Shown: in pieces, positions 43,792-64,000 of the stretch
Numbering within the stretch: position 1 is the stretch's first letter
Layout of the letters: every line of letters begins with the position of its first letter
NCBI GenBank assembly: GCA_014686905.1
Contig: GCA_014686905.1_4093.1
DNA length: 64,000 nucleotides
Direction: 5' to 3' (one strand)
DNA from: a phage
Notes under the pieces: generated by a model
What the model saw: only the letters and a program-made list of their open reading frames with translations
The model's database searches: none
Told to the model about the DNA's origin: nothing
Made by a program: the position numbers and the translations under genes

Positions 43792-43799
43792 ATTCCCTC

Positions 43800-46188: not shown

Positions 46189-46194
46189 AATTCC

Positions 46195-46253: not shown

Positions 46254-46260
46254 CTATATT

Positions 46261-46929: not shown

Positions 46930-47000
46930 ACTTCCTCCTTTATTCATTATACTATATTTAATACAAATAAGAAAGCCAGTACTTTGTACTGGCGAAATTA

Positions 47001-48191: not shown

Positions 48192-48244
48192 AATTCCCTC
48201 CTTTATTCATTATACTATATTTAATACAAATAAGAATGCCAGTA

Positions 48245-49432: not shown

Positions 49433-49502
49433 AATTCCTCCTTTATTCATTATACTATATTTAATCAAAAAATAAAAACCAGTATCAAGTACTGGCTTTA
49501 AT

Positions 49503-50651
49503 TCATTGTATAAATGACATATCAACTTCGGTATATCTTGTAGTGTACTGCCCAGAACTTCCACCCATTACTAGATTGGAAAAACCAGTATAAAATAACT
49601 TCCCTTCATCTGTGAGAATCAAACTACCGATGTTATTCAGTACTAAACTGTAAGAACTATTAAAATTTTCATAAGACTTGGTATAATAGAACTGATTTGT
49701 AAGATTACCAACACCCAATTGCCCACCAGTGTTAACCCCAGATGCAAATATTGTAGTCCCAAATCTGAGAATATGTGAAGCCATATTACCAACACAACAG
49801 TATATATTCTGTACATCCGAATTCAATAAAGTTGGTGTTGTGTATTGCTTAAGTGTTGTGCCTGTGCCGAATTCATTACCATATGATACTCCATATTGTG
49901 TACCACAAGCGTACAATTTATTATCATCTTTAATAAAAAATGTACTCTGATAACTTACATCGACATCTATAACATTAGTCTGTATTCTAACAACACCAGT
50001 ACTAGCAGTTTGATTGCCTGTCCCTAACTGATAGTAAGTGTTAATACCACAACCCCATAATGTATTATCTTCTTTTAGGTATATGTTACCAACAGCTTTT
50101 TTTACCGATGATATGGCTTCAATCTTAACAAAGGCGTTAAATGAATTTGTATTTGTGCCATTACCAAAAGATGATCTGGTTGATGTGCTGTTTGTTCCGC
50201 AGCAATATAAAGTACCATCAGTTGTTATCAAATTCACTTTAAGATCACTGTAACTACTCATGTATTTTATATCAGAAACATTAATACCACTGGATGTTAT
50301 CCATGAAGTACAATCTGTCCACGTGTTATAATATGCACCTGAACCAGAAAACGCACTCGGACTTCCAGTTATAAACACTTTTCCAGTACCGTCTTCTTCA
50401 TATAATTGACAACCACTACTGTTATTTTCCAAAAGGACTCTTTTAACATTAGTCGCACTAAGAATAAATTTACTCGACGCTACACCAGTTCCAGTACCCT
50501 GACTGACTGCCGCTGATGCATACAAATTTTTCGTGTATGTATCATGAAAATACATAGCACTACCGCCGGAATATATTTTAAAACGTGTACTAGGATCAGG
50601 CGGGTTAGGTGCAATATTTCCGTACTTAATCATTCTTCCAAAAGGTAACAT
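49503..50651 (-). CDS. RCC1-like repeat protein, paralog 10
   Basis: MLPFGRMIKYGNI leader; WGCGINTYYQLGTGNQ, FASGVNTGGQLGVGN. Confidence 0.8.
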   Translation of the reverse strand: MLPFGRMIKYGNIAPNPPDPSTRFKIYSGGSAMYFHDTYTKNLYASAAVSQGTGTGVASSKFILSATNVKRVLLENNSSGCQLYEEDGTGKVFITGSPSAFSGSGAYYNTWTDCTSWITSSGINVSDIKYMSSYSDLKVNLITTDGTLYCCGTNSTSTRSSFGNGTNTNSFNAFVKIEAISSVKKAVGNIYLKEDNTLWGCGINTYYQLGTGNQTASTGVVRIQTNVIDVDVSYQSTFFIKDDNKLYACGTQYGVSYGNEFGTGTTLKQYTTPTLLNSDVQNIYCCVGNMASHILRFGTTIFASGVNTGGQLGVGNLTNQFYYTKSYENFNSSYSLVLNNIGSLILTDEGKLFYTGFSNLVMGGSSGQYTTRYTEVDMSFIQ

Positions 50652-50722
50652 ATTTCCCTCCTTTATTCATTATAGTATATTTAATACAAATAAGAATGCC
50701 AGTATCAAGCACTGGCATTATG

Positions 50723-51832
50723 TTATTTTGGTAAATCAATTTTAGTAAAGACTGCAACATCCTCGATTGCACCTGGAATGGCGTAATACGATCCAGTACT
50801 ATACACATCTCCATTTTTGGTTAATATCGATGTCAAACCATCACTAAAAAGAACATCTCTAATCTCACTAACTTCAACGGGTAATTGTAAATTGGTAGCA
50901 CTATATATAGCACCAGTTTGAGAATTGTTTAATCCCAAACCACGGTTCGCCCCAACACCCTTCTGATATGTACTAGTAATTACCATTTGTGTAGCAGTAT
51001 TTAATGCAGGTGAATTCGTCATAAACAACGGAGAACTATTAGGCAAAGTACTTACAGGAACTGCACGGAATGTAGTCGTACCTGAACTAAGAAAGTTTGG
51101 AGTTTGACCACATACGAAATATGATGTACCATTATAGTAATTTAATGCATTACCACCAATGGCTGCATCGATTACACCAGAACTACGCAATCCCCAAGTG
51201 TTAATTTGTGTTTGGTTCCCCGTACCATGCTGCCCACTACTATTCCATCCAGAACTATATAGCTTATTATCTAATGTAAGATACATACTATCATTCGCAT
51301 TGGTCATTACTTTACGAACGTTCGTAGCACATTGAGTTAATGTATAAATTGATGATGAACCAATACCCAAAGAACCACGATATCCATTATCTCCTGCACC
51401 ATAGAGTACTGAATTAGTGCTAAGTACAAATATTAAACCATTTGTACATACAATATTAGCAATTTCACTTACTGGTATAGCATTGGTAAACCAATTAGTC
51501 CTTTCAACTAATACAGTACTGTAAGAAGTAGTCGTAGAAGATGAGAACCAGTACGTTTGACCTGATGTCCATATAGTATTATCATTTTTAATAATAACAA
51601 GTGTACGATCACCCACGAAAAAATTAGAAACATCTGCACTTACTAATATCCATGAAGATACCGTGTTGGTATTACCATTTCCAGATTCACCACCTTGATT
51701 TCTACCTATGTAATATAAATCATGTGAATCAGTCAATAAGAATTGACCTTGTGTAGAAGCACCAACTTTAATTATATTTTTAGGACCAGGTACAATATTT
51801 CCGTACTTAACCATTCTTCCAAAAGGTAACAT
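50723..51832 (-). CDS. RCC1-like repeat protein, paralog 11
   Basis: MLPFGRMVKYGNI leader; LYSSGWNSSGQHGTGNQ, YGAGDNGYRGSLGIG. Confidence 0.75.
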   Translation of the reverse strand: MLPFGRMVKYGNIVPGPKNIIKVGASTQGQFLLTDSHDLYYIGRNQGGESGNGNTNTVSSWILVSADVSNFFVGDRTLVIIKNDNTIWTSGQTYWFSSSTTTSYSTVLVERTNWFTNAIPVSEIANIVCTNGLIFVLSTNSVLYGAGDNGYRGSLGIGSSSIYTLTQCATNVRKVMTNANDSMYLTLDNKLYSSGWNSSGQHGTGNQTQINTWGLRSSGVIDAAIGGNALNYYNGTSYFVCGQTPNFLSSGTTTFRAVPVSTLPNSSPLFMTNSPALNTATQMVITSTYQKGVGANRGLGLNNSQTGAIYSATNLQLPVEVSEIRDVLFSDGLTSILTKNGDVYSTGSYYAIPGAIEDVAVFTKIDLPK

Positions 51833-51905
51833 AAATCCCTCCTTATTCATTATACTATATTTAATACAAAAAAGAAAAGCCAGCATCAAGTACTGGCATA
51901 TCAAA

Positions 51906-53054
51906 TCACTGCAAAAATGACATATCGACTTCGGTATAATTAAGAACGTTCTGTCCAGCAATACCTCCCATTACTACAATTGAAGCCCCACAATAATATA
52001 ACTTCGAAGTGTCAGTAAGTATAAGTGAACCAGATGGGGTGCGTACCAAATTACACGAAGTATTAAACGAAGTATATGAAGGGGTATAAGAGTACTGATT
52101 AATATTATTACCAACACCTAATTGACCAGACGAGTTGCTTCCAGATGCATAAAGTACTTCATCACCTTTAACTATATGTGACGCCATGTTACCAACACAA
52201 GTATATAAACTATAAACTCCTGAACTCAATAATGTTGGAGTTTTGTATTGTATATCTGTAGATGAAGAAGTACCACCTGTGCCAAATTCGTTCCCGTATT
52301 GTGCACCGAACTGTTTACCACATGCGTACAAATTATTATCTGATTTAATAAAAAATGTACTCTGATAACTTACATCAAAATCTATAACATCCGAAGCAAT
52401 CATCGTCACCCCAGTAATAGAAGTTTGATTACCTGTACCTAACTGATAGTAATAGTTAAAACCACAACCCCATAAAGTATTATCTTCTTTTAGGTATATG
52501 TTACCAACTGCCTTTTTAACCGAAGTTATAGTATCTACCCTTTTGAATGTGTTAAAAGAATTAATGTTTGTACCATCACCAAATGATGATAGGTTAGAGT
52601 TATTGTTAGCTCCACAACAATACAATGTACCATCGTTTGTTATCAAATTTACCTTCATATCATTAAAACTACTCATGTATTTTATATCAGAAACATTAAT
52701 ACCACCTGATGTTATCCACGTAGTACATTCCGTCCACAAAGTTTTTCTATCAGTTACACCAGTGAATGCCTTCGTGTTACCAGTGATAAAAACTTTTCCA
52801 GTACCTTTCTCTTCATACAATTGACAATCACTACTGTTATTTTCCAATAGAACTCGTTTAACATTCTCCGCACTAAGAATAAATTTACTCGACGAAACAC
52901 CTGTTCCAGTACCCCAATTCGTCGCAGAAGATGCATACAACTTATCAGTATAAGTATCATGAAGATACATGGAATCACTGGAATATATTTTAAAACGTCC
53001 ATCATCACCAGGGGCAATATTCCCGTACTTAATCATTCTAACAAAAGGTAACAT
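51906..53054 (-). CDS. RCC1-like repeat protein, paralog 12 (close duplicate of paralog 10)
   Basis: MLPFVRMIKYGNI leader; long blocks near-identical to 49503..50651. Confidence 0.8.
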   Translation of the reverse strand: MLPFVRMIKYGNIAPGDDGRFKIYSSDSMYLHDTYTDKLYASSATNWGTGTGVSSSKFILSAENVKRVLLENNSSDCQLYEEKGTGKVFITGNTKAFTGVTDRKTLWTECTTWITSGGINVSDIKYMSSFNDMKVNLITNDGTLYCCGANNNSNLSSFGDGTNINSFNTFKRVDTITSVKKAVGNIYLKEDNTLWGCGFNYYYQLGTGNQTSITGVTMIASDVIDFDVSYQSTFFIKSDNNLYACGKQFGAQYGNEFGTGGTSSSTDIQYKTPTLLSSGVYSLYTCVGNMASHIVKGDEVLYASGSNSSGQLGVGNNINQYSYTPSYTSFNTSCNLVRTPSGSLILTDTSKLYYCGASIVVMGGIAGQNVLNYTEVDMSFLQ

Positions 53055-53102
53055 ATTTCCCTCCTTATTCATTATATCATATTTACCCCATAAAGAAAAC
53101 CC

Positions 53103-53156: not shown

Positions 53157-53384
53157 ATGACAAATACTCTTAAGCACTACCTCAATACTCTAAATGAACT
53201 AGAGTACGGGGAATTTCTCGCGGATAGTTCGTGGCTAATTGAGCTAAAAAATTATAATAGTCCAGGATGCACCCTTATGATGAACAATGCAATTGATACC
53301 CTCATTGTGAGTATTTTACACAGCAACATCTGCGGGGATAGCAATAAACAATTATCAAAAATCTTAGTACTGCTATCTATATGA
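53157..53384 (+). CDS. small-ORF array member 1 (75 aa)
   Basis: First ORF of head-to-tail array; hydrophobic C-terminus ILVLLSI. Confidence 0.5.
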   Translation: MTNTLKHYLNTLNELEYGEFLADSSWLIELKNYNSPGCTLMMNNAIDTLIVSILHSNICGDSNKQLSKILVLLSI

Positions 53385-53584
53385 ACATTGAACAGTACTA
53401 CATCGATGCACTACCAACAAAAGGTCTACGAGAAAGCCTACTGTATACACAAAATACTTTTATACACTACAAACGTTGTCCTAAACTCCTGAACTCGTAC
53501 AGGAGTAATATCATAAGAAATGCTTTACAAGGGGCAGAAAGTATGCAATACTATTATATCCTTGCCCTTTTAATCGAGTACTAA
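53381..53584 (+). CDS. small-ORF array member (67 aa)
   Basis: MNIEQYYIDALP...ILALLIEY; start overlaps upstream stop. Confidence 0.55.
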   Translation: MNIEQYYIDALPTKGLRESLLYTQNTFIHYKRCPKLLNSYRSNIIRNALQGAESMQYYYILALLIEY

Positions 53585-53585
53585 T

Positions 53586-53795
53586 ATGAATACTGAACAT
53601 AAAGAATTCTACACCAAATACCTTAGCAACGAAGAACAATTGTTTCTAAGGAGTGTATCACCTGTAAGTACCAATACTCACTTCGGTAGAGATTGCTTTA
53701 ATAATTGTATACGTAGTACTCTAGAAGCAATCGAATGCAATAACAAAAATATTATGTACTCAGGTTTAATAGGACTAATCTACTTCTATGAATAA
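53586..53795 (+). CDS. small-ORF array member (69 aa)
   Basis: MNTEHKEFYTKYLS...IGLIYFYE. Confidence 0.55.
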   Translation: MNTEHKEFYTKYLSNEEQLFLRSVSPVSTNTHFGRDCFNNCIRSTLEAIECNNKNIMYSGLIGLIYFYE

Positions 53796-53982
53796 TCATA
53801 AAGATTTCTATGGTAGTAAACTACACAAGCAAGACCAGCTATCATTCTCTTTAGCACCACCTATGAGAAAGGATAATCTATATTACAATTACGATTTCAG
53901 GATGGCGACACGTTATGCAATAGAACATCAGTTCCCTGAAACTAAGTACCGCTCTATCCTGAACCTCATCTTTAAGTTCTAA
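53788..53982 (+). CDS. small-ORF array member (64 aa)
   Basis: MNNHKDFYGSKL...LNLIFKF. Confidence 0.55.
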   Translation: MNNHKDFYGSKLHKQDQLSFSLAPPMRKDNLYYNYDFRMATRYAIEHQFPETKYRSILNLIFKF

Positions 53983-54034
53983 AAGGTGCAACAGGAACCG
54001 AGTACTTTAATATAGTAAGGCTAATTACATTATA

Positions 54035-54220
54035 ATGAATCATATAAGCTACTACTACCAACAACTATCCGACAGAGACAAGTACAGTCACAACTCCCAT
54101 GTGTGGTACTACAAACGCGGCAGTATAAGAGACAAACAACATTACTTCTGTATTTCTATTAAAGAAGCACTGACAACTAAGTACACGTACCGAGCAGTAC
54201 TGAAACTTATTGAAATGTAA
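54035..54220 (+). CDS. small-ORF array member (61 aa)
   Basis: MNHISYYYQQL...VLKLIEM. Confidence 0.5.
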   Translation: MNHISYYYQQLSDRDKYSHNSHVWYYKRGSIRDKQHYFCISIKEALTTKYTYRAVLKLIEM

Positions 54221-54228
54221 GGAAGAAA

Positions 54229-54411
54229 ATGAACATAGAATTCTATTTAACTAAACTACAACACGCCGAAAGATTCAACTTCAATAAGTTCAATATTTTC
54301 TACAATTGCGGGAACAAAAAAGATAAACACACCTTCCTATATGTCGTCACAAGAGATGCACAAAACGAAAAGTACACATACAGAGAAGTAATGAAACTAA
54401 TCGCTATTTAA
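54229..54411 (+). CDS. small-ORF array member (60 aa)
   Basis: MNIEFYLTKLQ...VMKLIAI. Confidence 0.5.
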   Translation: MNIEFYLTKLQHAERFNFNKFNIFYNCGNKKDKHTFLYVVTRDAQNEKYTYREVMKLIAI

Positions 54412-54419
54412 GGAATACT

Positions 54420-54599
54420 ATGCAACAATTCTATAGAGAACGTATAACCATAAAAGACCGTTTCATGTACGACACCTTCGTGAAGTACTACAAACTAGGA
54501 ACAAAAAGTACTAAAAATATTAATCTCAATAGCTGCATTTATGCTGTACTAACACAAGATAATCCCTACAGGGAAATCCTCGCCCTGGCATCTATATAA
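54420..54599 (+). CDS. small-ORF array member (59 aa)
   Basis: MQQFYRERITIK...ILALASI; below track threshold, found by reading. Confidence 0.45.
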   Translation: MQQFYRERITIKDRFMYDTFVKYYKLGTKSTKNINLNSCIYAVLTQDNPYREILALASI

Positions 54600-54609
54600 A
54601 GGAAACCAA

Positions 54610-55281
54610 ATGAAACTTAATGCACACAGCAAACAATACCTTAAGCACTTTAAGTACCTCAATAGTATTCAGGCAGAATCAGTTACATCTGCATATACGT
54701 ATCACCCGAATGTACTAAAGAAACGAAATAAAAAGGAAAAATCCAGTACAAATGGAGTTAACGTATCAAAGAACCTTGAATTGTACATGAAGAAAAATAA
54801 TATAGCTGTTCATTATATGAATATCTATAATACTGATTTAAAAGTATTGAGTACTAATACGAGCACAAAGGTACTAAAGAACGCATCCTTCATCATCAAT
54901 ATGCAGTTGGATAATACCCCGTGCACTTTAATGCTATACTTCGGGAATACATACTTCTTCGGGAATTGTAACACCTCCCACGATGTCAATACAGCACAAT
55001 TCCAAATGGGTGGCATATACAATATGGGTTCAAAAAAAGTACACGAGAATATGCACTTCTGGCAAGCACAACGTACAGAAGAAACTAAATCAATTGTAGA
55101 TTTCCTCAAAGAACTAGAACACAAAGAACTACAGGAAGAAGAACTATTCATGTACAGTACTGTAATCGATAATCCAGTACTCTATAAAAACGCGTACAAT
55201 CTGACAAAACATGTACAGGAAATTATCAGTACTAATAAGAAAATGCATCACCTCATTACGTATATTACAAACTATGTATAA
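54610..55281 (+). CDS. hypothetical protein (223 aa) embedded in small-ORF array
   Basis: Long ORF; stop overlaps start of next small ORF. Confidence 0.55.
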   Translation: MKLNAHSKQYLKHFKYLNSIQAESVTSAYTYHPNVLKKRNKKEKSSTNGVNVSKNLELYMKKNNIAVHYMNIYNTDLKVLSTNTSTKVLKNASFIINMQLDNTPCTLMLYFGNTYFFGNCNTSHDVNTAQFQMGGIYNMGSKKVHENMHFWQAQRTEETKSIVDFLKELEHKELQEEELFMYSTVIDNPVLYKNAYNLTKHVQEIISTNKKMHHLITYITNYV

Positions 55282-55456
55282 AGAATACTACCAAGAACAT
55301 CTCCCAATGCATCTCCAACACCTTGTACCCAAAGAACCAATAGGAATAAAAGATCACGCAAAAATAATGTTCCAACAATGTACTAAGTACACGCTCATAT
55401 ACGATGATAATCCATATATGCTGTACTACGTAGTAATGCTAACATTCAGGTACTAA
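55274..55456 (+). CDS. small-ORF array member (60 aa)
   Basis: MYKEYYQEHLPMHLQHLVP...VVMLTFRY. Confidence 0.55.
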   Translation: MYKEYYQEHLPMHLQHLVPKEPIGIKDHAKIMFQQCTKYTLIYDDNPYMLYYVVMLTFRY

Positions 55457-55457
55457 T

Positions 55458-55637
55458 ATGCACAAACATAAAGAATTCTACCTCTCGTACCTTAATTCCG
55501 ATATAGTAACATCCAATACCTTCAGTACTAAAATTATCTATAATGAATTAATAAAAGAATGTATTAAAGGTGCTATTAACCCTAAAGATACGTATGACTT
55601 GTACTATGCAGTACTAACCCTTGTTTTCACGAAATAA
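55458..55637 (+). CDS. small-ORF array member (59 aa)
   Basis: MHKHKEFYLSYL...AVLTLVFTK; TAATATG junction. Confidence 0.5.
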   Translation: MHKHKEFYLSYLNSDIVTSNTFSTKIIYNELIKECIKGAINPKDTYDLYYAVLTLVFTK

Positions 55638-55645
55638 CACATAAT

Positions 55646-55837
55646 ATGAATAACCACAAAGAATACTACATAGAGAAACTCCCAATGTATCTCCAACACC
55701 TTGTACCAAACGTTGCATTGGGTATAGAAAAAAACTACGAAAAAGACTACTTCATTCAGTGCACTAAATCCTCGATATATATTGACGACTATAATCGAGT
55801 ACTGTATCACATCCTTTTACTAATATATAGGTACTAA
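55646..55837 (+). CDS. small-ORF array member (63 aa)
   Basis: MNNHKEYYIEKLPMYLQHLVP...ILLLIYRY. Confidence 0.6.
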   Translation: MNNHKEYYIEKLPMYLQHLVPNVALGIEKNYEKDYFIQCTKSSIYIDDYNRVLYHILLLIYRY

Positions 55838-55838
55838 T

Positions 55839-56021
55839 ATGCACAAAGAATACTACACACAATTTCTCCCCAGCATTTTTGAACACTACGCCAGATATAA
55901 AGTCCCTCTGGATAACGATTTGGCAGTACTGGGATTCAATAACTGCATAGAACGAAGTATAGAAAATAGTAGTAGTTATGACCAGCTATATAACACTATC
56001 CTACTTATATTCAGGTACTAA
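55839..56021 (+). CDS. small-ORF array member (60 aa)
   Basis: MHKEYYTQFLP...ILLIFRY; TAATATG junction. Confidence 0.6.
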   Translation: MHKEYYTQFLPSIFEHYARYKVPLDNDLAVLGFNNCIERSIENSSSYDQLYNTILLIFRY

Positions 56022-56022
56022 C

Positions 56023-56211
56023 ATGCATAAAGAATACTACACAAAATATTTCCCAATGTACCTCAGAACTAATCTATTAGATAAACCTCGCGGTATCAAT
56101 GCACAAAATGATAAAGTGTATTTTACTATGTGCACTAAAGCATGTATACTAGATTTTGACAGCTACCATCGAGTACTGTATCATACCCTGTACCTAGCTT
56201 TCGTATTCTAA
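56023..56211 (+). CDS. small-ORF array member (62 aa)
   Basis: MHKEYYTKYFPMYL...LYLAFVF. Confidence 0.55.
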   Translation: MHKEYYTKYFPMYLRTNLLDKPRGINAQNDKVYFTMCTKACILDFDSYHRVLYHTLYLAFVF

Positions 56212-56220
56212 GAGAACAAT

Positions 56221-56406
56221 ATGCATAAAGAATTCTACTTAAGCCACCTCGATCTAAACTCCCAAATGCTTATACCACAAATCCCAATAGATATCAAGGA
56301 TAAGAAAAATACCGAACAATTCATTTACCATACACAGTGTGCGATCACCCCAAATTACATTCCATATGAATTGTACTACATTCTCGCCCTAATATATAGG
56401 TACTAA
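56221..56406 (+). CDS. small-ORF array member (61 aa)
   Basis: MHKEFYLSHL...ILALIYRY. Confidence 0.6.
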   Translation: MHKEFYLSHLDLNSQMLIPQIPIDIKDKKNTEQFIYHTQCAITPNYIPYELYYILALIYRY

Positions 56407-56407
56407 T

Positions 56408-56593
56408 ATGCATAGAGAATACTACACACAATTTGTTAAAGGGAACTACAAACATGCCGTACCCAGAACCCCTTTAAATTTTCATGACCCAAGTACTATA
56501 TTCTTGTTTAATGACGCAATACGTACAGTACTCAATACTAAAGATGAAGATGTGCAGTACGTATTCTTACTATTACTTATATACAGACACTAA
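56408..56593 (+). CDS. small-ORF array member (61 aa)
   Basis: MHREYYTQFV...LLLLIYRH. Confidence 0.6.
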   Translation: MHREYYTQFVKGNYKHAVPRTPLNFHDPSTIFLFNDAIRTVLNTKDEDVQYVFLLLLIYRH

Positions 56594-56598
56594 CTAAT

Positions 56599-56808
56599 AT
56601 GAATAAAGAACATAAAGAATTCTACTCCAAATACATAAGCCCCTCAGAACAAATGTTTCTAAGGACTACACCACCTTTAAGTACTAATACATATTTCGGC
56701 AGAGTATGCTACAATAATTGTATTCAAATGACTTTAAACGCAAACGAAGATGATAACAGTACTAACCTGTACTCAGGTATCATAGGTATACTATTCCTGT
56801 ATGAATAA
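56599..56808 (+). CDS. small-ORF array member (69 aa)
   Basis: MNKEHKEFYSKYIS...IGILFLYE (close to 53586 member). Confidence 0.6.
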   Translation: MNKEHKEFYSKYISPSEQMFLRTTPPLSTNTYFGRVCYNNCIQMTLNANEDDNSTNLYSGIIGILFLYE

Positions 56809-56989
56809 TTACAAAGACTTCTATTTGAATACACTACCTACTGTACTTTCTCTAAGTGCTCAATGTAAAATCCCGCTGGATAATGCTTACGCCAGATATA
56901 GCTATTCCATAACTGTTAATCGATGTATAGAGAATCATTGCAGTACTAACCAGTACTATAACATAATCCTACTTATATTCAGGTACTAA
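56801..56989 (+). CDS. small-ORF array member (62 aa)
   Basis: MNNYKDFYLNTLP...IILLIFRY. Confidence 0.6.
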   Translation: MNNYKDFYLNTLPTVLSLSAQCKIPLDNAYARYSYSITVNRCIENHCSTNQYYNIILLIFRY

Positions 56990-56990
56990 T

Positions 56991-57173
56991 ATGAATAAAG
57001 AACATAAAGAATTCTATATACGAAAACTAACATTCGTCCCCGTAAGAATATATAAAGAATGCGACCCAAGATTATACCTATGGCACTTCAATGAGTGCAT
57101 AAAAGATTCTATATACCCTAAGAACTACAAAGAACAATTGTGCTCAGTACTAACACTAGTACTATCATATTAA
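56991..57173 (+). CDS. small-ORF array member (60 aa)
   Basis: MNKEHKEFYIRKL...VLTLVLSY. Confidence 0.55.
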   Translation: MNKEHKEFYIRKLTFVPVRIYKECDPRLYLWHFNECIKDSIYPKNYKEQLCSVLTLVLSY

Positions 57174-57188
57174 TTAATAGAGAATACT

Positions 57189-57380
57189 ATGTATAAAAAC
57201 TTCTATATAAGTAAACTAAAAGAAAATGAACAAGTATGGATTAGATCTATAATTCCACTGGCATTTAATAGATATGCATTTAACAGATGTACCGAGATTG
57301 CTATAGACCCTTATAATATTAAAGAGAATGTACAGTATAATCAGTACTACTATATCTTAATGCTTATATATAGGAAGTAA
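57189..57380 (+). CDS. small-ORF array member (63 aa), last unit
   Basis: MYKNFYISKL...YILMLIYRK. Confidence 0.55.
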   Translation: MYKNFYISKLKENEQVWIRSIIPLAFNRYAFNRCTEIAIDPYNIKENVQYNQYYYILMLIYRK

Positions 57381-58429
57381 TTAAACACAAGTAGACAGGG
57401 GAAGCTCCTAGTGAACAACCTTTATGTACAGGCGAATTGTTAAAATTCAGCCTGGACAAATGCGATCACTAGGATTCTCCCCAGGCTAAACCCCGTAATC
57501 ATAGGTAGTCATAAGTAATCATATATAAACATTTATATGAGCACCGTAGAATCACAGAATGATTATATATGATTCAGTACTGATTAGTATAGACAAGAAT
57601 GCTCAAGAATGCACGGGAAGGATTCAGTACTGATATGCCACTAAGTAGGCAGAGGAAGTCTGCCGTACTTTTTAGTTTCCAAGCTCCTTTTCCATTTTTC
57701 AAATTACATCAAATGTAATCAAAAGTAATCACGCAATGATTAGTACTGAATTATTACTTTCACCTTAATTTCAATTACCCCTTTACCCTTCGGGGTAAAA
57801 TTCAATTACCCCTTGAGGCTCCAGCAAAAAGTTGGTTAGTACTCCATCCTAAATCTCGATCCTAAAAATTTTGGAGTACCTATGAAATAAAAGTTGGATC
57901 TTCGAAAGTTGAAATTTACGTTGGGACGTTTATGATTTGTGGGATATAATGATGTTTGTAGTCGGGTAGTTCTCAAGAATATCAGTACTGAATAATGAAA
58001 GAAAGCTATTGACATTATGATTCAGTACTGTATAATGTTCTACATAGAGAGATGAGTTGCTGCGAACAATTCATTTACTCTATCTCCTGTCGTGAGACAG
58101 TACAGAAAAGATAGTTCCTCCTGTGGTGGTACATCTTTTTGAACCTCATATGAAAATCGTAATAACAGTACTGATATTAACAGAATGGTGTCAGTACTGA
58201 TTTTAATCTAAAGCATTATGCCACCAGCTTGTGCTGGTGGATTCCCTCTAACAGTATTCAGTACTACATGATGGTCTTCATCCTCCTAGGGTAACATAGT
58301 GAGGGCTATGATGGCAGTACTGAATACTCCCTTTCAAAAGATAGATCTATGGTATAGTACTGACGGATTTTGGGTGTAGTTACCCTGGATGGATTTTGGG
58401 CGTAGATATGTCTAGCCCTCCAGAAGTCT

Positions 58430-58545
58430 GGAAGTAAAGATGGCTATCCATCTAGACGGCTAAACGGCTAGATGGCTGGATGGCTAGACGTTTGGACGGC
58501 TAAACGGCTAGATGGTTACACGTCTGGAAGTATAGACGGCTAAAT
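58430..58545. repeat. iteron-like short direct repeats
   Basis: GACGGCTAAACGGCTAGATGG twice plus partial third copy; GTCTGGAAGTA twice. Confidence 0.6.
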
Positions 58546-59158
58546 CAAAATTTTATTTTGTTTTTCCAATAGTTCCCCTACCGCGTGGGGATAGTTTCCC
58601 CGCAGTATCTGGCGTTAGATTTTTCTGAATCTGGAATCATTATCTTATAAACTGGGGGCAATGTCAACGACCTGGACGGATATTTTTAAAAATTTTTTCA
58701 GTACTGAATTTTGGGCGTAACTATGCACCCGGTGGGCTTGAGTCTTTCTCGACTTGATGGAACTATTATACAGTACTGGAAAAATAAAGCAATACCCTGG
58801 ATGAAAAAAGTTTTAATTAATTTGCTTGCCATCCTGGGCCGGACTATGGTACTATATTTCAGTACTGAGAAAGTGCGTTTACCTGCTAGGGTGCGGGAGT
58901 GTATCCTTTTTTTATATCTTGAATTTTGGACGGATCTTCCCACCCCCTGGGGTATCCGCTTTCTCGCGTCTATGTAGTAATTATACGCTTTTTCAGGATC
59001 AAGTCAATACCTAAAAACAAAATAATTGAAAATAATTTAACGCGTTTAAACGGCCCGTAACGCCCTGGAATGATTAGAATGGTGCAAATGTATAGCTTAG
59101 GTGTATTAATGCGTTAGAATGCGTCTGAGGCCGTTTTATGGGGTGTAGTAGTGATTTG

Positions 59159-59251
59159 GTTGATTCAGTACTGAATAATAGTACTCCTATATAGAAAGAT
59201 AGTTCCCCTGGATTGATTCAGTACTGAATAATAGTACTCCTATATAGAAAG
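59159..59251. repeat. ~38-bp direct repeat, two copies
   Basis: TTGATTCAGTACTGAATAATAGTACTCCTATATAGAAAGA twice, separated by ~15 bp. Confidence 0.7.
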
Positions 59252-59283
59252 AAAACTATTTTAAAAGTATTTGTAGAAAGTAC

Positions 59284-59343
59284 TTGCACCGTACTGATAA
59301 AAGCGTATAATGTTTTACATCGAGAGCGGGAACACTTCCCGCT
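59284..59343 (+). promoter_or_regulatory. PeSL-like cassette: promoter + 5' stem-loop
   Basis: TTGCAC-N16-TATAAT, GTTTTACAT, stem AGCGGGAA-CAC-TTCCCGCT. Confidence 0.6.
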
Positions 59344-59366
59344 ACACTTTAAGAGAGATTAATACG

Positions 59367-59729
59367 ATGGCAACTCAAATCACCAAAATTATTGCTAACC
59401 TGGTTAACTTCCGCGACGAGATGAAAGATCTTCCGGCGGCGACGGTTAAAACTCACATTGACGCATACCGCGAACTGATTAAAATGCTGCCGCTTAAGCG
59501 TGAACAATACGCCGCTACCGTGATGCTTGATGCGATGATCCATAAGATGATCGCCAGTGATTTGACGATGGTTTATCAGTATATGGGCGAAAATTTCGCG
59601 GTGTGTAGTAAGCCAGTACCAGGGATGGCAACAACTGAGGAATTGCACGGCTTAAACTTAAAACAAGATGCATGGGATAATATGCCTCGTTTCCTGGTAT
59701 GGGCTGACAGTGGCAAAATTTACAAATAA
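59367..59729 (+). CDS. hypothetical protein (~120 aa)
   Basis: Start MATQITKI after SD AGAGAGA; GC-richer codon usage. Confidence 0.6.
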   Translation: MATQITKIIANLVNFRDEMKDLPAATVKTHIDAYRELIKMLPLKREQYAATVMLDAMIHKMIASDLTMVYQYMGENFAVCSKPVPGMATTEELHGLNLKQDAWDNMPRFLVWADSGKIYK

Positions 59730-59743
59730 GTTTAATAAAGTAC

Positions 59744-59802
59744 TTGCAAACTATGTTTAATGGCGTATAATGTTTTACATCAGGTGGGGAATAGTTCCCC
59801 AC
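59744..59802 (+). promoter_or_regulatory. PeSL-like cassette
   Basis: TTGCAA-N16-TATAAT, GTTTTACAT, stem GTGGGGAA-TAG-TTCCCCAC (covaries with other copies). Confidence 0.6.
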
Positions 59803-59824
59803 TATATAAGAGGATTAAAAAAAA

Positions 59825-60064
59825 ATGGCTAAATCAAAAATGTTCTTAGGTCACAAAAACAAAACTCATTGGAATGTAAGCCTGTGGATTAATAACGATG
59901 AGGGATTGTATCGGTTGGCCCTGGACTTTATTGCCGCCAATACTAATCGCAATGATGCGGCCCGTCATATGATGTTATTTTTAGAACAGACTGGACAAGA
60001 TAAAACACCGGACGGATTCAAATATAGCACTACTGCGATCCGTGCGGCGATGGTTGGAATGTAA
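59825..60064 (+). CDS. hypothetical protein (79 aa)
   Basis: ORF, SD AGAGGA. Confidence 0.55.
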   Translation: MAKSKMFLGHKNKTHWNVSLWINNDEGLYRLALDFIAANTNRNDAARHMMLFLEQTGQDKTPDGFKYSTTAIRAAMVGM

Positions 60065-60150
60065 TAGAATTTATTTAAAGTACTATCATTTTTTTGCGAT
60101 AGTACTTTATAATAGTGTTTTATTCATACACCAACGATAAGGGCAACAGC

Positions 60151-60417
60151 ATGAATATTAAGTATTTTGCGACGCGTGAACAAGCTCGGATCGCCGCACG
60201 CCAGGACGGGGCAACGTTTAAAGATATGGGAGCGGGATCGGCAAGTGGTGAACGTTGGGCCATTGTAAAGCGTAGTACGGCCAGATCATTACAGTACTGG
60301 TTAGCGGCCTTAAAAAGTCCCGATAGTGTATCGCGTCGAGTGGTAGAAATAAAGCTCGACCGAAAGGGCAACCGCGTGACCGTGTACCGTACTAAAAAGA
60401 TTGCAGTACTTGAATAA
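60151..60417 (+). CDS. hypothetical protein (~88 aa)
   Basis: Start MNIKYFATRE within track ORF 60115..60417. Confidence 0.55.
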   Translation: MNIKYFATREQARIAARQDGATFKDMGAGSASGERWAIVKRSTARSLQYWLAALKSPDSVSRRVVEIKLDRKGNRVTVYRTKKIAVLE

Positions 60418-60424
60418 AAAGTAC

Positions 60425-60483
60425 TTGCAAACTATGTTTAAAGGCGTATAATGTTTTACATCGAGAGCGGGAACTCTTCCCGC
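60425..60483 (+). promoter_or_regulatory. PeSL-like cassette
   Basis: TTGCAA-N16-TATAAT, GTTTTACAT, stem GCGGGAA-CTC-TTCCCGC. Confidence 0.6.
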
Positions 60484-60504
60484 CTATAACCTGGAGTAAT
60501 AAAA

Positions 60505-60735
60505 ATGACTAATATGTATATGACTGAAGTTAAAACCGTAAAAGATACTACCACGAATAAAACTACTTACTTACAGCGGATCTGTGGTGTATGGCAACGT
60601 ATCAGCAAATCAAAGTACTTTAAATTAACATCATATGCAAACCGTTCTGATTCATTCAGTACTGAAATAAAAGGTAATAAAGTACACCAATACGGCACTT
60701 ATTATTATTACAGCCTGGACGCGATTGCAGTATAA
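60505..60735 (+). CDS. hypothetical protein (76 aa)
   Basis: ORF, SD GGAG. Confidence 0.55.
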   Translation: MTNMYMTEVKTVKDTTTNKTTYLQRICGVWQRISKSKYFKLTSYANRSDSFSTEIKGNKVHQYGTYYYYSLDAIAV

Positions 60736-60984
60736 GCAGTTTACAAATCTTTACAATTGCCGGTATTGACTTATTTTGTCAGTACTGGCATAATGTATTC
60801 ATTGGCAGATAAGCCGTAGCCCATAGGGTGCGGGAGTGTATCTATAGAAAAATTAGTTTAGTATAGTTACAATTGTGCACCCGGTGGGTTAGCTGTTGTC
60901 ATGGGGTATATTATGCCAGTACTTGATAATGCTGTCAATACTTTTTTTTACTATCCAGTACAGAAAACTATTTTTAAAAAGTAC

Positions 60985-61053
60985 TTGCAAACTATGTTTA
61001 AAGGCGTATAATGTTTTACATCAGGACGGGGAACGAAATAAGTAACTTCCCGT
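60985..61053 (+). promoter_or_regulatory. PeSL-like cassette (longer loop)
   Basis: TTGCAA-N16-TATAAT, GTTTTACAT, stem ACGGGGA...TCCCGT; no ORF immediately downstream. Confidence 0.5.
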
Positions 61054-61103
61054 TAAGTAGCCCAGGAGTAAGGCACACGAAAAACTCCCCTGATAAAATA
61101 GTT

Positions 61104-61130
61104 TGACAAATGTTTTTAAAAGCGTATAAT
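61104..61130 (+). promoter_or_regulatory. sigma70-like promoter TTGACA-N15-TATAAT
   Basis: Directly upstream of gene 61163; tandem with cassette at 60985. Confidence 0.5.
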
Positions 61131-61162
61131 ACTTACATCAACTACTGAATGAGGGTTATAAA

Positions 61163-61774
61163 ATGAAAACTATCACTACTACTACTTTCGTTATGGATTT
61201 TTCTGAATTGAACGCAGAACAAAAAACGTCAGCTATCGAACTGGTTCGGGAACGTGAAAAAAACTCAAACGACAATTATTTTTCTGAAAGTGAAATTGAA
61301 TACTATAAAGAAACAGTACTACCGGAATATGGCATTAATGACGCTGAAATACAATTCAGTGGTTTTTGGTCCCAGGGTGACGGTGCATCAATCAGTACTG
61401 ACCACGTTGACGCAGTGAAGTTTTTACGCAAGGTTAGAGCGTTAACTAAGTATCGCTCAATCCGTCACCTGCTGAATGAAGATGATTTGGCGATGAGTGT
61501 AAAGCGTTCTCACTCCCACTACTCGCATGAGAATACTGTAAGCGGGTACATTGAATCGGCTTACACTGATTTAACCGCAAAACAAGAAACGTTAGTTAAT
61601 GAGCTTGAGGAACTACTCACTGATACTATTCGTGAATTGTCCCGTAAGTTGTACCGTGATTTAGAGAATGCATATGAGGATCAATTCACTACTGAAAACA
61701 TTACGGCACTGATTGAGGGTAACGAATATCAATTCAATGTTATTGATGGCGTAGTAGAATCAATCGAATATTAA
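61163..61774 (+). CDS. hypothetical protein (203 aa)
   Basis: ORF, SD GAGGG. Confidence 0.6.
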   Translation: MKTITTTTFVMDFSELNAEQKTSAIELVREREKNSNDNYFSESEIEYYKETVLPEYGINDAEIQFSGFWSQGDGASISTDHVDAVKFLRKVRALTKYRSIRHLLNEDDLAMSVKRSHSHYSHENTVSGYIESAYTDLTAKQETLVNELEELLTDTIRELSRKLYRDLENAYEDQFTTENITALIEGNEYQFNVIDGVVESIEY

Positions 61775-61784
61775 TTCAAAAAGT

Positions 61785-61844
61785 ACTGGACACTAAGCAA
61801 TAAAGGCGTATAATACTTTATATCGAGAGCGGGAATAGTTCCCG
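61785..61844 (+). promoter_or_regulatory. PeSL-like cassette
   Basis: TGGACA-N16-TATAAT, stem AGCGGGAA-TAG-TTCCCGCT. Confidence 0.55.
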
Positions 61845-61866
61845 CTACTAATGAGGAATACTACAA

Positions 61867-62031
61867 ATGAATACTTTTACCTTCGCTCAATTGAACGCCC
61901 TGGATGTATTGTCTGATGCTTTGCGGGATGCAACTGAAAGCGGTTTATTTGACAATGTTGACATTCACCCTGATGTAATTAATAATTTTTGTGATGCTAT
62001 CGCAGAAGTACTGGAAGATCTAAAAAAATAA
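61867..62031 (+). CDS. hypothetical small acidic protein (~54 aa)
   Basis: MNTFTFAQLNALDVL..., SD GAGGAA; coordinates +/-1. Confidence 0.45.
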   Translation: MNTFTFAQLNALDVLSDALRDATESGLFDNVDIHPDVINNFCDAIAEVLEDLKK

Positions 62032-62041
62032 TAGAAAGTAC

Positions 62042-62100
62042 TTGCAATTAGTTTTTAGTACTGTATAATAGTTTACATAGAGGGGAGAAATGGTTCTCCC
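62042..62100 (+). promoter_or_regulatory. PeSL-like cassette
   Basis: TTGCAA-N16-TATAAT (CAGTACTG spacer), stem GGGAGAA-ATGG-TTCTCCC. Confidence 0.55.
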
Positions 62101-62119
62101 TGGTAATGAGGAAAATAAA

Positions 62120-62341
62120 ATGGCTAATATCACTACTCTTTCTCAACTGGAAGCACTGGTTAAATCTATGCGGGAACATGCAGACAATATCGGCGTAAAA
62201 GATCCAGCCGTTTGCTTCTGCGACGAAATGAATGATGATACACTGGTAATAGCAGAAGTACAAGATATTTCTAACTATTCATCGCGTTACACTGGCGGCG
62301 TAGCAAATAAAGGTGACTTCTGTTTATACCTTACCAAATAA
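62120..62341 (+). CDS. hypothetical protein (~73 aa)
   Basis: Start MANITTLSQ after SD GAGGAA; the track ORF's ATG at 62090 lies in the stem-loop. Confidence 0.55.
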   Translation: MANITTLSQLEALVKSMREHADNIGVKDPAVCFCDEMNDDTLVIAEVQDISNYSSRYTGGVANKGDFCLYLTK

Positions 62342-62509
62342 CAACGCGGGGAGATAATAACTCCCCGTTACTTTTTCAGTACTGAATCATTTAATAGACG
62401 GATCTCGGCACCCTGTGGGTTAGTGACTGTATCGTCTTTATGTAGTAATTATGCCAGTACTGGATGCAGTTGTCAACAATTATTTTTCAAATACTTTTTA
62501 TTAAAATAC

Positions 62510-62564
62510 TTGCTATTAGTTTTTAAACGCGTATAATGTTTTGCATAGGGGGAGCGGTTCCCCC
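62510..62564 (+). promoter_or_regulatory. PeSL-like cassette
   Basis: TTGCTA-N16-TATAAT, GTTTTGCAT, stem GGGGGA-GCGGT-TCCCCC. Confidence 0.55.
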
Positions 62565-62585
62565 TGGTAACTAAGGAATAAGAAA

Positions 62586-62819
62586 ATGCTTGAACAAATC
62601 AAATCAACGTCTGCTAATGTAACGGGAACGGTATCACACTTTATTGGTGATGAATCGCGGGGCGTTCCCTATTGTGCTGTACATGTAAACACTGAGGGTA
62701 ACTACTGGTTTACGGTTTACGGATCATATTCATTTGGACGGCCAGGGCATCAAAAAATTCTGGATAAAGTACAACCAACGGGTAAAAATATCACTGCCGA
62801 AATGTTTTATAAAAACTAA
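62586..62819 (+). CDS. hypothetical protein (77 aa)
   Basis: ORF, SD AAGGAA. Confidence 0.55.
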   Translation: MLEQIKSTSANVTGTVSHFIGDESRGVPYCAVHVNTEGNYWFTVYGSYSFGRPGHQKILDKVQPTGKNITAEMFYKN

Positions 62820-62828
62820 TAAAATACT

Positions 62829-62886
62829 TGATAATAGTTTTTAGTACTGTATAATATTTTACATAGCACGGGGGAGCGGTTCCCCC
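62829..62886 (+). promoter_or_regulatory. PeSL-like cassette (stem-loop identical to 62510 copy)
   Basis: TTGATA-N15-TATAAT, stem GGGGGA-GCGGT-TCCCCC + CTGGTAACTAAGGA. Confidence 0.55.
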
Positions 62887-62906
62887 TGGTAACTAAGGAT
62901 AATCAA

Positions 62907-63206
62907 ATGAAAATTGCAATCATCGCCCTGGCTTTATCTGTTTCCTCTTTCTCTGTTAATGCGTCGTTAGATGTACCTAGTGAAAAATTCATTCAGTGCA
63001 CCGTAGCGATGACCGATGAAAGTACTGGCGAGATTGTTTTAAAGGATTTAGAGATCCAGCCAGAAGCATTTAAAAACGGCCCGTTCCATGAAGAAGACGA
63101 AAACGGTAGCACAACAATTTATTATGATGCAAGTACTAAACGCGGTTCGGTCACTGTAATGGATACAGAGAAAGTAACACACACAGGAGTAATTAACTGT
63201 TTATAA
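62907..63206 (+). CDS. secreted hypothetical protein (99 aa)
   Basis: Signal peptide ...SVNA/SLD. Confidence 0.6.
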   Translation: MKIAIIALALSVSSFSVNASLDVPSEKFIQCTVAMTDESTGEIVLKDLEIQPEAFKNGPFHEEDENGSTTIYYDASTKRGSVTVMDTEKVTHTGVINCL

Positions 63207-63212
63207 ATCACT

Positions 63213-63238
63213 AGCCCACTCATACAGTGGGCTTTTTT
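63213..63238 (+). terminator. rho-independent terminator
   Basis: AGCCCACT-CATA-CAGTGGGCT + T6. Confidence 0.65.
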
Positions 63239-63283
63239 ATTTTTGTAGTACTGCATACTTTGAAAATAGTTTTAAGAAAGTAG

Positions 63284-63311
63284 TTGACATTACCGCAGAA
63301 AAGCGTAGAAT
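63284..63311 (+). promoter_or_regulatory. sigma70-like promoter TTGACA-N16-TAGAAT
   Basis: Followed by GTATTACAT and long leader. Confidence 0.45.
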
Positions 63312-63434
63312 GTATTACATCAAGACGGGGAGCACTAAGTAGACCGCCAGTAAGTCGAACGAAAAACTGGACACGTCGAGAAAACTTTGATACACTATCT
63401 AACGTAAACTAAACTTTAATTGAGGAATTATATA

Positions 63435-63917
63435 ATGGCTAATGTAAAATCATTCATCAAAGCACTGGTAGCAAATGAAACTAACGTAGCGGCAGAGATC
63501 CTGGCAGAACTGGATAACGATACCATGAAAGCAGTACGCAACAATTTTAACATTGCGTACAGTGAAGCTAAAGAACTGCAAGCCAAAAAGGTAGCAGAAC
63601 TGGAAGAACAGAAAAAAGCCCGTGAAGCAGAACTACAAGCAACAATTGAAAGTATCCAGTCGGCGGTGTCTGGATTGGATCTGGAAGTGGTTGTTGAAAT
63701 GGCACATAAAGCCCTGGCGGTTAAGTACGGTGAAGATAAGCCGGAATCTAAGCCTAAAAAATGGATTCAGGAACGCGTAGCGGTAGTACTTGATAACGGT
63801 GAAGAACATTTGATTCCTGTACGCGGTAACTGCATTGCGGTAGTACTGGACGCTATCAAAGAAAGCGGTATGACTCGCGAGGAATGGATCGAAGCTCATC
63901 GCAAAGTTGAAGCATAA
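63435..63917 (+). CDS. hypothetical protein (~160 aa)
   Basis: Start MANVKSFIK after SD GAGGAA; helical Ala/Glu/Lys-rich. Confidence 0.6.
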   Translation: MANVKSFIKALVANETNVAAEILAELDNDTMKAVRNNFNIAYSEAKELQAKKVAELEEQKKAREAELQATIESIQSAVSGLDLEVVVEMAHKALAVKYGEDKPESKPKKWIQERVAVVLDNGEEHLIPVRGNCIAVVLDAIKESGMTREEWIEAHRKVEA

Positions 63918-63937
63918 CAATTAAAGTACTGAATCAA

Positions 63938-63966
63938 TAGCCCACCTTAAACAGTGGGCTTTTTTG
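63938..63966 (+). terminator. rho-independent terminator
   Basis: AGCCCAC-loop-GTGGGCT + T6. Confidence 0.6.
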
Positions 63967-64000
63967 TGTCTATAGTATTCCAGTCCACTAGCACCGCCTA

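Follow-up and report, generated by a model that had tools for sequence, protein, structure and literature searches.

Genes and cassettes at the right end of the window

Here we analysed a stretch of 64,000 nucleotides of phage DNA (GenBank assembly GCA_014686905.1, contig GCA_014686905.1_4093.1; referred to throughout as the window), and in particular the block of ten small genes that occupies its last part (59300-64000). The initial annotation, made from the sequence, had described this block as visibly richer in G+C (GC), with codons such as CTG, CCG and GCG, had placed the beginning of the shift at about 59.3 kb and had taken it, together with a PeSL-type cassette before each gene, as a sign of recently acquired genes of foreign origin. 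The window belongs to an Asteriusvirus (PBECO4/121Q-like) jumbo coliphage: megablast of 59300-64000 returned slurp01 (96%), JP4, EC.P1 and the PBECO4/121Q group, the remainder of the window also matches Asteriusvirus, and the closest records are classed in Caudoviricetes, the phage being an Asteriusvirus and not a T4-type phage. As judged from alignment with its relatives, the block lies in the first part of a direct terminal repeat (DTR) of about 21 kb, and the compositional shift is a property of this repeat and not of the ten particular genes.

All ten open reading frames (ORFs) claimed for the block are present, and they lie, with their cassettes, on the plus strand. Cassette 1 (59274-59342), a promoter followed by a 5' hairpin that belongs to repeat family D1 and folds at -12.5 kcal/mol, stands before gene 1 (59367-59729; 120 amino acids, aa; GC at third codon positions, GC3, 0.50), which matches phrog_7352 and is a homologue of phi92 gp227 and rV5 gp179. 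Cassette 2 (59734-59802), which is also an indel breakpoint, is followed by gene 2 (59825-60064, 79 aa, Pfam PF23907) and by gene 3 (60151-60417, 88 aa, GC 0.48), the latter with a weak promoter match. After cassette 4 (60415-60483) and gene 4 (60505-60735, 76 aa, GC3 0.32) there is an orphan cassette that has a structured leader of about 85 nucleotides (nt) and no ORF (60975-61100; fold z = -2.3), and then a second promoter (61103-61130), serving gene 5 (61163-61774, 203 aa, phrog_5162). Cassettes 6 (61777-61845) and 7 (62032-62100) are the left and right edges of a hypervariable slot occupied here by gene 6 (61867-62031, 54 aa), and gene 7 (62120-62341, 73 aa) ends before a two-way terminator (62346-62368). 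Cassette 8 (62503-62574) and gene 8 (62586-62819, 77 aa) are followed by cassette 9 (62818-62886) and gene 9 (62907-63206, 99 aa, with a signal peptide), and, beyond a terminator (63213-63233), by cassette 10 (63274-63434; TTGACA-N16-TAGAAT with a leader of about 120 nt) and gene 10 (63435-63917, 160 aa, GC 0.43), behind which lies another terminator (63939-63960).

None of the ten proteins could be assigned a function from Pfam, PHROGs or PADLOC, the match of gene 2 being to DUF7249. Gene 9 is labelled 'spackle' in the relative fEgEco12, a label to which sequence comparison lends no support; solved Spackle structures are present in the PDB, and gene 9 matched no PDB chain at E <= 1 and no function in Pfam or PHROGs. 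Rfam at gathering thresholds returned nothing in the whole window beyond one transfer RNA (tRNA), and at E <= 1 in 57.4-64 kb it returned only sub-threshold Trp-leader-like matches, which fall on two terminators. ARAGORN found a single tRNA in the window, a tRNA-Thr (UGU) at 1434-1507 and thus distant from the block; of the seven phage tRNAs of the relative G17, only this tRNA-Thr (UGU) falls in the window.

A promoter-hairpin unit repeated before small genes

The claim of PeSL-type promoter/stem-loop cassettes was borne out, a unit of about 70 nt being found 8-9 times in the window. The unit consists, in order, of an AT-rich stretch, AAAGTACTTGCAA, a 16-nt spacer, TATAAT, about 12 nt, a hairpin, about 20 nt with a ribosome-binding site, and the ATG. 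The hairpin has 8-9 base pairs (bp), with a purine-rich G-run as 5' arm and a C-run as 3' arm, and folds at -12 to -16 kcal/mol. In eight of the ten genes the promoter matches at 9-12 of 12 positions with a TATAAT -10; the match of gene 3 reaches only 8/12, and the promoter of gene 10 is the upstream TTGACA-N16-TAGAAT. The 8-9-bp hairpin is present in seven of the ten genes, and genes 3 and 5 have a promoter match without hairpin.

An explicit promoter-plus-hairpin search (hereafter the strict scan) yielded six units in 57644-64000 (0.94/kb) against one in 1-57643 (0.02/kb), the latter interval being referred to below as the backbone. In the DTR of fEgEco12 it yielded 15 units, and in the stretches of 3 kb and 10.5 kb that lie outside the repeats it yielded none. 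The units are all on the plus strand, and shuffled sequence yields none.

We then compared 47 cassettes from six loci. The hairpin keeps a fixed distance from the -10 (median 12 nt downstream), and 25 distinct 5' arms each have a complementary 3' arm, which means that the pairing is conserved through compensated changes. A T-run follows the hairpin in only two of the 47 cassettes, and the hairpin does not resemble a classical intrinsic terminator. Given its location a few bases from the predicted transcript start, the most economical reading is that this predicted 5' hairpin most likely stabilises the mRNA.

Some other units were seen beside these cassettes. The sole backbone cassette (30107-30160, -10 at 30134) has the palindrome CAGTACTG in its spacer and lies upstream of the ORF 30187-30741. 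The orphan cassette at 60975-61100 has a stretch of 33 nt in common with the long leader that precedes gene 10 (63316-63400), and copies of it with 86-88% identity are found elsewhere in the repeats of relatives (13587-13777 in one, 14111-14308 in another). Four units run from promoter to terminator without any ORF: 62476-62346 and 60938-60850 on the minus strand, and 60766-60850 and 58826-58907 on the plus strand. Both minus-strand units have an extended -10 promoter (TTGACA-N17-TGnCATAAT) and share GCACCC-GTGGGTTA, and both plus-strand units share AGGGTGCGGGAGTGTATC. These four units are possible small RNAs. Their fold z values are weak, between -0.1 and -2.1 (folded: 60795-60860 and 58856-58915 on the plus strand, 62447-62345 and 60909-60850 on the minus strand), and when the leaders 61016-61100 and 63316-63400 are included, no more than two of the six candidates attain z values of about -2.1 to -2.3.

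The compositional step and the end of the terminal repeat

Analysis of base composition confirmed a shift toward a GC-richer block. GC is 0.3429 in 1-57643, 0.3909 in 57644-64000 and 0.3931 in 59300-64000, a modest rise of about five GC points that runs past the end of the window. In 1-kb segments GC lies mostly at 0.30-0.37 up to 57 kb and at 0.38-0.41 from 58 kb onward, with a local peak of 0.44 at 58.2-58.6 kb. The GC of the block has z = 2.9 with respect to all 4.7-kb segments in 1-57643, none of which (0/1059) is as high; the nearest of them (GC 0.3923, at 42.2 kb) is driven by second codon positions (GC2) and has low GC3. A single change-point fit located the step at 58220 with a log-likelihood ratio (LLR) of 24.7, the maximum in 200 block-shuffles being 11.4. 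The step is hence above chance, and its position at about 59.3 kb had been misplaced by about 1-1.7 kb: the true step is at about 57.6-58.2 kb, in an ORF-free stretch, with the rise beginning about 1.1-1.7 kb upstream of 59.3 kb and the change point lying 1.1 kb before the first gene. At the gene level, median GC3 is 0.357 for the ten block genes and 0.256 for 95 backbone ORFs (Mann-Whitney P = 2e-4), and GC at first codon positions (GC1) is 0.51 in the block and 0.43 in the backbone.

The sole other GC-rich stretch of the window (0.38-0.42 at 43-47 kb) is given by minus-strand genes: 38938-53072 holds about ten paralogue-sized genes of 228-439 aa with high GC2 (0.41-0.57) and low GC3. In the ~390-aa paralogues among them GC3 is only 0.16-0.27, so that they differ in kind from the signal of the block. 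A AGTACTTGATACTGG...TTATTTGTATTAA motif is repeated upstream of several of these genes.

The location of the step coincides with a physical end of the genome in related phages. In local blastn, base 1 of fEgEco12 and base 1 of vB_Ec-M-J both align to window position 57644, and window 57644-63196 matches fEgEco12 1-5573 at 96.6%. According to the corresponding papers, the DTR of fEgEco12 measures 20,993 bp, as determined by PhageTerm and confirmed by restriction digests (PMC13070987), and the repeats measure about 20 kb in Sharanji and G17 and 22.5 kb in the more distant CBB (PMC11895373, PMC6563267, PMC5259590). The record of vB_Ec-M-J annotates 'Direct Terminal Repeats' at 1-21525, several relatives' records start about 1.6 kb upstream of the 59.3-kb block, and the window is continuous from the unique right end into the repeat, like the right-hand junction of fEgEco12. 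Because base 1 of relatives with mapped ends aligns to 57644, the block is, by this alignment, part of the first 6.36 kb of a DTR of about 21 kb (57644-64000, plus strand), about 15 kb of which lie beyond the window.

The GC zone follows the repeat in each of the relatives analysed. In vB_Ec-M-J GC falls from 0.386 in the repeat to 0.320 behind it, with a change point at 21547 against the annotated end at 21525, and in fEgEco12 the change point is 21014 against a DTR end at 20993. On the left side the repeat opens with a few hundred AT-rich bases, and the GC rise therefore trails the genome end by about 0.4-0.6 kb. The Klebsiella phage fENko-Kae01, which falls in a different genus cluster in the table of the fEgEco12 paper (PMC13070987), has GC 0.373 in the DTR and 0.338 after it, a change point at 19578 against an end at 19736, and GC3 0.319 in the DTR against 0.275 after it (P = 0.003). 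Since the GC zone matches the DTR both in close relatives and in this distant Klebsiella phage, the compositional island is a long-established trait of the repeat in these phages. Gene organization changes as well: inside the repeat genes are co-oriented with a spacing of about 80-100 bp, and beyond the repeat they are tightly packed. The step in GC3 and codon usage is thereby tied to a physical genome landmark, the change point being about 20-160 bp from the right DTR end (mapped or annotated) in three Rak2-like phages, and composition could help to place the ends of the numerous jumbo-phage assemblies deposited as collapsed circles.

The beginning of the repeat is a leader (57644-59261) with no ATG-started ORF of at least 60 aa. 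At its extreme left end stands a terminator-like hairpin (57648-57664), and further in are a perfect TTGACA-N16-TATAAT promoter (58009-58036), behind which the next 1.3 kb hold no gene, tandem repeats (8/40 nt) with an 11-copy CTAGACGG-type array at 58439-58544, and a perfect 40-nt direct repeat (59160-59199 and 59213-59252).

Palindromes are very abundant in this DNA: AGTACT occurs 224 times in the window, with about 22 expected, and CAGTACTG occurs 56 times, with about 0.9 expected. Sites of the latter are inside ORFs in 34 of the 56 cases and intergenic in 22, and they are densest at 57575-59226, where 10 of 12 fall in the DTR leader; in four promoters the 8-mer fills the spacer directly before the -10. 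The same palindrome excess is seen in vB_Ec-M-J, fEgEco12 and fENko-Kae01, and 50 kb of phi92 have 0 against 13 expected. Directly before the repeat, 53157-57380 holds about 19 tightly packed ORFs of about 60 aa in tandem, 13 of which form one paralogous family (M-x-KE-F/Y-Y ... LIYRY) and three a second; the codon usage of this array is unlike that of the repeat and also unlike that of the backbone. In fEgEco12 and vB_Ec-M-J, ORFs of about 70 aa are packed in a similar way behind the left repeat.

Gene turnover and sharing between phage families

Gene content in this region differs between near-identical Asteriusviruses. In megablast, at least 80% of the block is covered by only 8 records, and many cover about 50-60%. 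When the block was aligned with five Asteriusviruses, every break fell at a cassette or a terminator. In vB_Ec-M-J and PBECO4 two copies of the interval 59739-59818 flank an extra gene, the breakpoints 61833-61857 and 62023-62029 bound the slot that holds gene 6 here and 2-4 other genes in G17, PBECO4, SP27 and vB_Ec-M-J, and three relatives have an extra gene at 63196-63233. Gene turnover is thus cassette-bounded.

Sharing also extends beyond the genus. Pieces of the block are 72-93% identical at the nucleotide level to coliphages of about 130-150 kb belonging to the Vequintavirinae (rV5-like) and the Stephanstirmvirinae (phAPEC8- and phi92-like). The gene 2 region (59818-60066) has 76-93% identity to phi92 gp232, W70, ZYD and Phapecoctavirus; gene 4 with its cassette (60440-60738) has 87-88% identity to ZYD and to a 146-kb 'Campylobacter phage A145' record; gene 8 with its cassette (62525-62813) has 80-93% identity to the 5' part of a gene in W70, A5-4 and LTH01 (Vequintavirinae); and the 3' two-thirds of gene 1 (59488-59729) have 72-73% identity to ZYD and phi92. 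Between cassette 6 and the cassette that precedes phi92 gp232, identity is about 92-93%. The other 15 kb of the fEgEco12 DTR gave a like picture: among its 125 listed matches, rV5-/phi92-type coliphages form the majority. A 25-kb backbone control gave no cross-family sharing among the 40 of 88 matches listed, which comprised jumbo relatives and a few very short matches. Close homologues in unrelated phages are thus present for genes 1, 2, 4 and 8. No megablast match to the block DNA was obtained in 5,426 complete E. coli genomes, and host origin of the block was rejected.

The partner phages carry arrays of the same design, in which about 80-90 bp separate one small gene from the next and every gene has TTGACA-N17-TAnnnT and a hairpin of the GGCGGGAAA/TTTCCCGCC type. 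The phi92 array is located at the right genome end, beside a 343-bp repeat and outside that repeat. In ZYD, a Vequintavirus, the cassette before the gene-2 homologue is chimeric, with a promoter half of Asteriusvirus type and a hairpin and leader half identical to phi92. To judge from these two halves, the chimera is a recombination junction inside the cassette. The direction of exchange is ambiguous, and the ZYD junction shows that the jumbo phage is not necessarily the recipient. Five 'Campylobacter phage' records (A145, A110a, B15, A141 and A13b; 140-150 kb) are 84-88% identical at the nucleotide level to coliphage cassette genes and look like rV5/phAPEC8-type coliphages.

Protein comparisons bear on the age of the genes. 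Gene 3 has homologues with 30-35% aa identity in RaK2, K64-1 and Muenster, the Muenster copy lying in the annotated terminal repeat, and gene 10 has homologues with 31-36% aa identity in RaK2, K64-1, Munch and fENko-Kae01, the last of these inside the annotated DTR. Because these homologues occur in RaK2-like phages and in annotated terminal repeats, genes 3 and 10 are old residents of the DTR. Gene 5 is widespread: its homologues in rV5-like phages are 59% identical in aa, those in other jumbo phages 37-46%, and Bacillus phages have it as well. Genes 3 and 10 are old and yet, with GC of 0.48 and 0.43, among the GC-richest, and gene 4 is shared and yet has low GC3; GC richness therefore does not go along with evidence of transfer. 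Regarding the recent acquisition initially proposed, cross-family sharing supports it for genes 1, 2, 4 and 8 and the age of genes 3 and 10 speaks against it for these two. The 51.8-kb 'Klebsiella phage phiKp_21' record carries homologues of genes 3, 4 and 10 in addition to backbone DNA, and so may be a jumbo-phage fragment.

Codon usage of the repeat genes

Relative synonymous codon usage showed the three codons named in the initial annotation to be enriched 3-5 times in the block with respect to the backbone (CTG 2.05 vs 0.51, CCG 1.26 vs 0.25, GCG 0.95 vs 0.29). CGC, GGC, ATC and CGG are also up in the block, and AGA, ATA and ACA are down. The codon adaptation index (CAI), weighted on 30 E. 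coli genes for ribosomal proteins and elongation factors, is 0.457 in the block and 0.336 in the backbone (P = 2e-3), and the 53 DTR genes of fEgEco12 gave P = 5e-9. The seven tRNAs of G17 read ACA, AGA, TCA, GGA, AGT, AAY and one CAT-anticodon codon. Counting ATA on the assumption that the CAT tRNA is of the Ile-lysidine type, the share of ACA, AGA, TCA, GGA, AGT and ATA is 0.20 in the block and 0.33 in the backbone (P = 1e-3). For GC3, CAI and the share of phage-tRNA codons in the 53 fEgEco12 DTR genes, P values are of the order of 1e-9 to 1e-11. The low share of phage-tRNA codons would fit translation before phage tRNAs are available.

For the 29 codons ending in G or C, the more often E. 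coli uses a codon the more it tends to rise (rho 0.52-0.60), and codons that E. coli avoids (CCC, CTC, GGG, AGG, TCG) do not rise. Uniform GC pressure was rejected, since the rise is codon-specific. The codon usage of the block correlates at 0.94 with that of the whole DTR, at 0.80 with the W70 array, at 0.68 with the phi92 array and at 0.62 with its own backbone, and array GC is 0.39-0.40 in Asteriusvirus (backbone 0.34), phi92 (0.399; backbone 0.370), ZYD and W70. The evidence points to the shift being a mix of host-like codon choice and a shared gene pool.

Explaining the shift: early expression, exchange and alternatives

Taking all the results from the composition, cassette and comparative analyses, we consider it probable, with real room for doubt, that the block is the left 6.4 kb of a DTR that serves as an early, cassette-shuffling zone with host-adapted codons, and that it is not one recent foreign island. 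This explanation brings together what was observed of the identity of the repeat, the anatomy of the cassettes, the confinement of cassettes and of the GC and codon shift to the DTR, the turnover of genes and their sharing across families. The DTR consists of about 55 small single-gene cassettes that all point in one direction, and their genes would be immediate-early genes, presumably of the host-takeover or anti-defence type. The cassettes would be read by the unmodified host RNA polymerase, and translation would precede the accumulation of the phage's own tRNAs. Under such conditions selection would keep the genes on CTG, CCG, CGC, GGC and ATC and off ACA, AGA and ATA, which are served by phage tRNAs, and this selection for host codons would raise GC3. 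The conserved cassettes of about 70 nt would also supply homology for recombination, and Asteriusviruses gain, lose and swap genes among themselves and with rV5- and phi92-like coliphages.

Several observations weigh against this explanation. The GC gain is small and the backbone stretch at 42-47 kb is nearly equally GC-rich, GC3 is raised only mildly in gene 4 and genes 6-9 (0.28-0.36), and the codon usage of the block correlates with that of E. coli at 0.56-0.68, no better than with that of the backbone (0.62). CGG, which is rare in highly expressed E. coli genes, is up 20-fold, and CAG and GTG are flat. Finally, the literature searched contains no Asteriusvirus transcriptome, the term 'early' being derived from promoters and position.

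Whether the ten genes are instead a recently imported foreign island, with GC coming from a GC-richer donor, has to be weighed against the extent of the shift, which spans the whole 21-kb DTR, stops at its boundary and is present in the distant relative fENko-Kae01 too. Genes 1, 2, 4 and 8 and several cassettes do resemble Vequintavirinae and Stephanstirmvirinae (72-93% at the nucleotide level), gene content is patchy among close relatives, and codon usage is, outside the phage's own DTR, closest to the W70 and phi92 arrays. The old genes 3 and 10 are, however, as GC-rich as the shared genes, gene 4, among the clearest shared, is among the least GC-rich of the ten, there is no copy in the 5,426 E. 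coli genomes, and at least one junction (ZYD) suggests export from Asteriusvirus to Vequintavirus. We therefore regard the origin proposed in the initial annotation as unlikely.

Equally hard to sustain is an explanation by expression-driven codon adaptation only, with the DTR genes inherited vertically and exchange incidental. It accounts well for a rise limited to codons that E. coli uses often, for the avoidance of phage-tRNA codons and for the maintenance of the property in fENko-Kae01; it does not account for the behaviour of CGG, CAG and GTG, which argues that translational selection is not the only force at work, nor for the rise of GC1, for which synonymous selection has no explanation, and exchange is demonstrably frequent. 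The idea that two repeat copies recombine in each cycle and that GC-biased repair raises their GC, to which the GC boundary within about 20 bp of the repeat boundary at the right end lends itself, is very improbable given that the enrichment is codon-specific and not uniform over G/C-ending codons, that the first ~0.5 kb of the repeat is AT-rich with the change point at 58220 and not at 57644, and that the phi92 array is GC-richer (0.399 vs 0.370) though outside its 343-bp repeat.

Returning to the DTR as an early, cassette-shuffling zone, we tentatively propose, with a little less than even confidence, that the cassettes are a recombination 'currency' with which at least three unrelated coliphage lineages (Asteriusvirus jumbo phages, Vequintavirinae and Stephanstirmvirinae) trade ready-to-express immediate-early genes in both directions. 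The GC and codon usage of the DTR could then be the signature of a common pool tuned to E. coli, with GC of about 0.39-0.40 whatever the backbone. The ~55 small genes per genome are also marked as candidates for first-minute host-takeover or anti-defence functions.

Comparison with known systems

The repeat analysed here is the same physical feature as the DTRs of the Rak2-like phages fEgEco12, vB_Ec-M-J, Sharanji, G17 and CBB, and it has already been published for the genus. The relevant passage of the CBB paper mentions three RpoD-like promoters in the repeat, possibly continuing the early region (PMC5259590). In term searches of the fEgEco12 (PMC13070987) and Sharanji papers the word 'promoter' was absent and nothing was found on the GC or codon usage of the repeat, and the passages on fEgEco12, Sharanji, G17 and CBB make no mention of cross-family sharing of cassettes.

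The cassettes themselves resemble the PeSLs described from RB49/phi1, PST/T4 and nt-1/KVP40 (Arbiol et al. 2010, PMC2839356; Comeau et al. 2014, PMC4122927). In both cases a near-consensus sigma-70 promoter with an AT-rich upstream stretch stands beside a stem-loop made of a G-run, a loop and a C-run, the units extend over about 70-100 conserved nt and recur in hyperplastic regions in front of small ORFans, and indels or replacements between close relatives are bounded by cassettes. The differences are that the lineage here is Asteriusvirus and not a T4-type genus, that the hairpin is fixed about 12 nt after the -10 (in the 5' untranslated region), whereas most RB49 PeSLs lie in or over the promoter, that a T-run after the hairpin is a rarity here (2/47), that the array fills a 21-kb terminal repeat, and that near-identical cassettes are found across three phage families, one of them chimeric in ZYD. 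PeSL-type modular shuffling would in this way be extended beyond T4-type phages to exchange between families, with the chimeric cassette as a concrete junction.

The terminal redundancy of SPO1 and of Kayvirus and the pre-early (first-step-transfer) region of T5 hold early or host-takeover genes. The likeness, one of overall layout, lies in a long terminal repeat of small co-oriented genes, each with a strong host-type promoter; the difference is that Pfam and PHROGs reveal no sequence homology to the modules of those phages.

In T4-like phages a split in codon usage between early and late genes is linked to the phage tRNAs. The presumed early genes of the Asteriusvirus repeat likewise avoid codons read by phage tRNAs (ACA, AGA, ATA and others), and the split is here sharply regional, coinciding with the terminal repeat.

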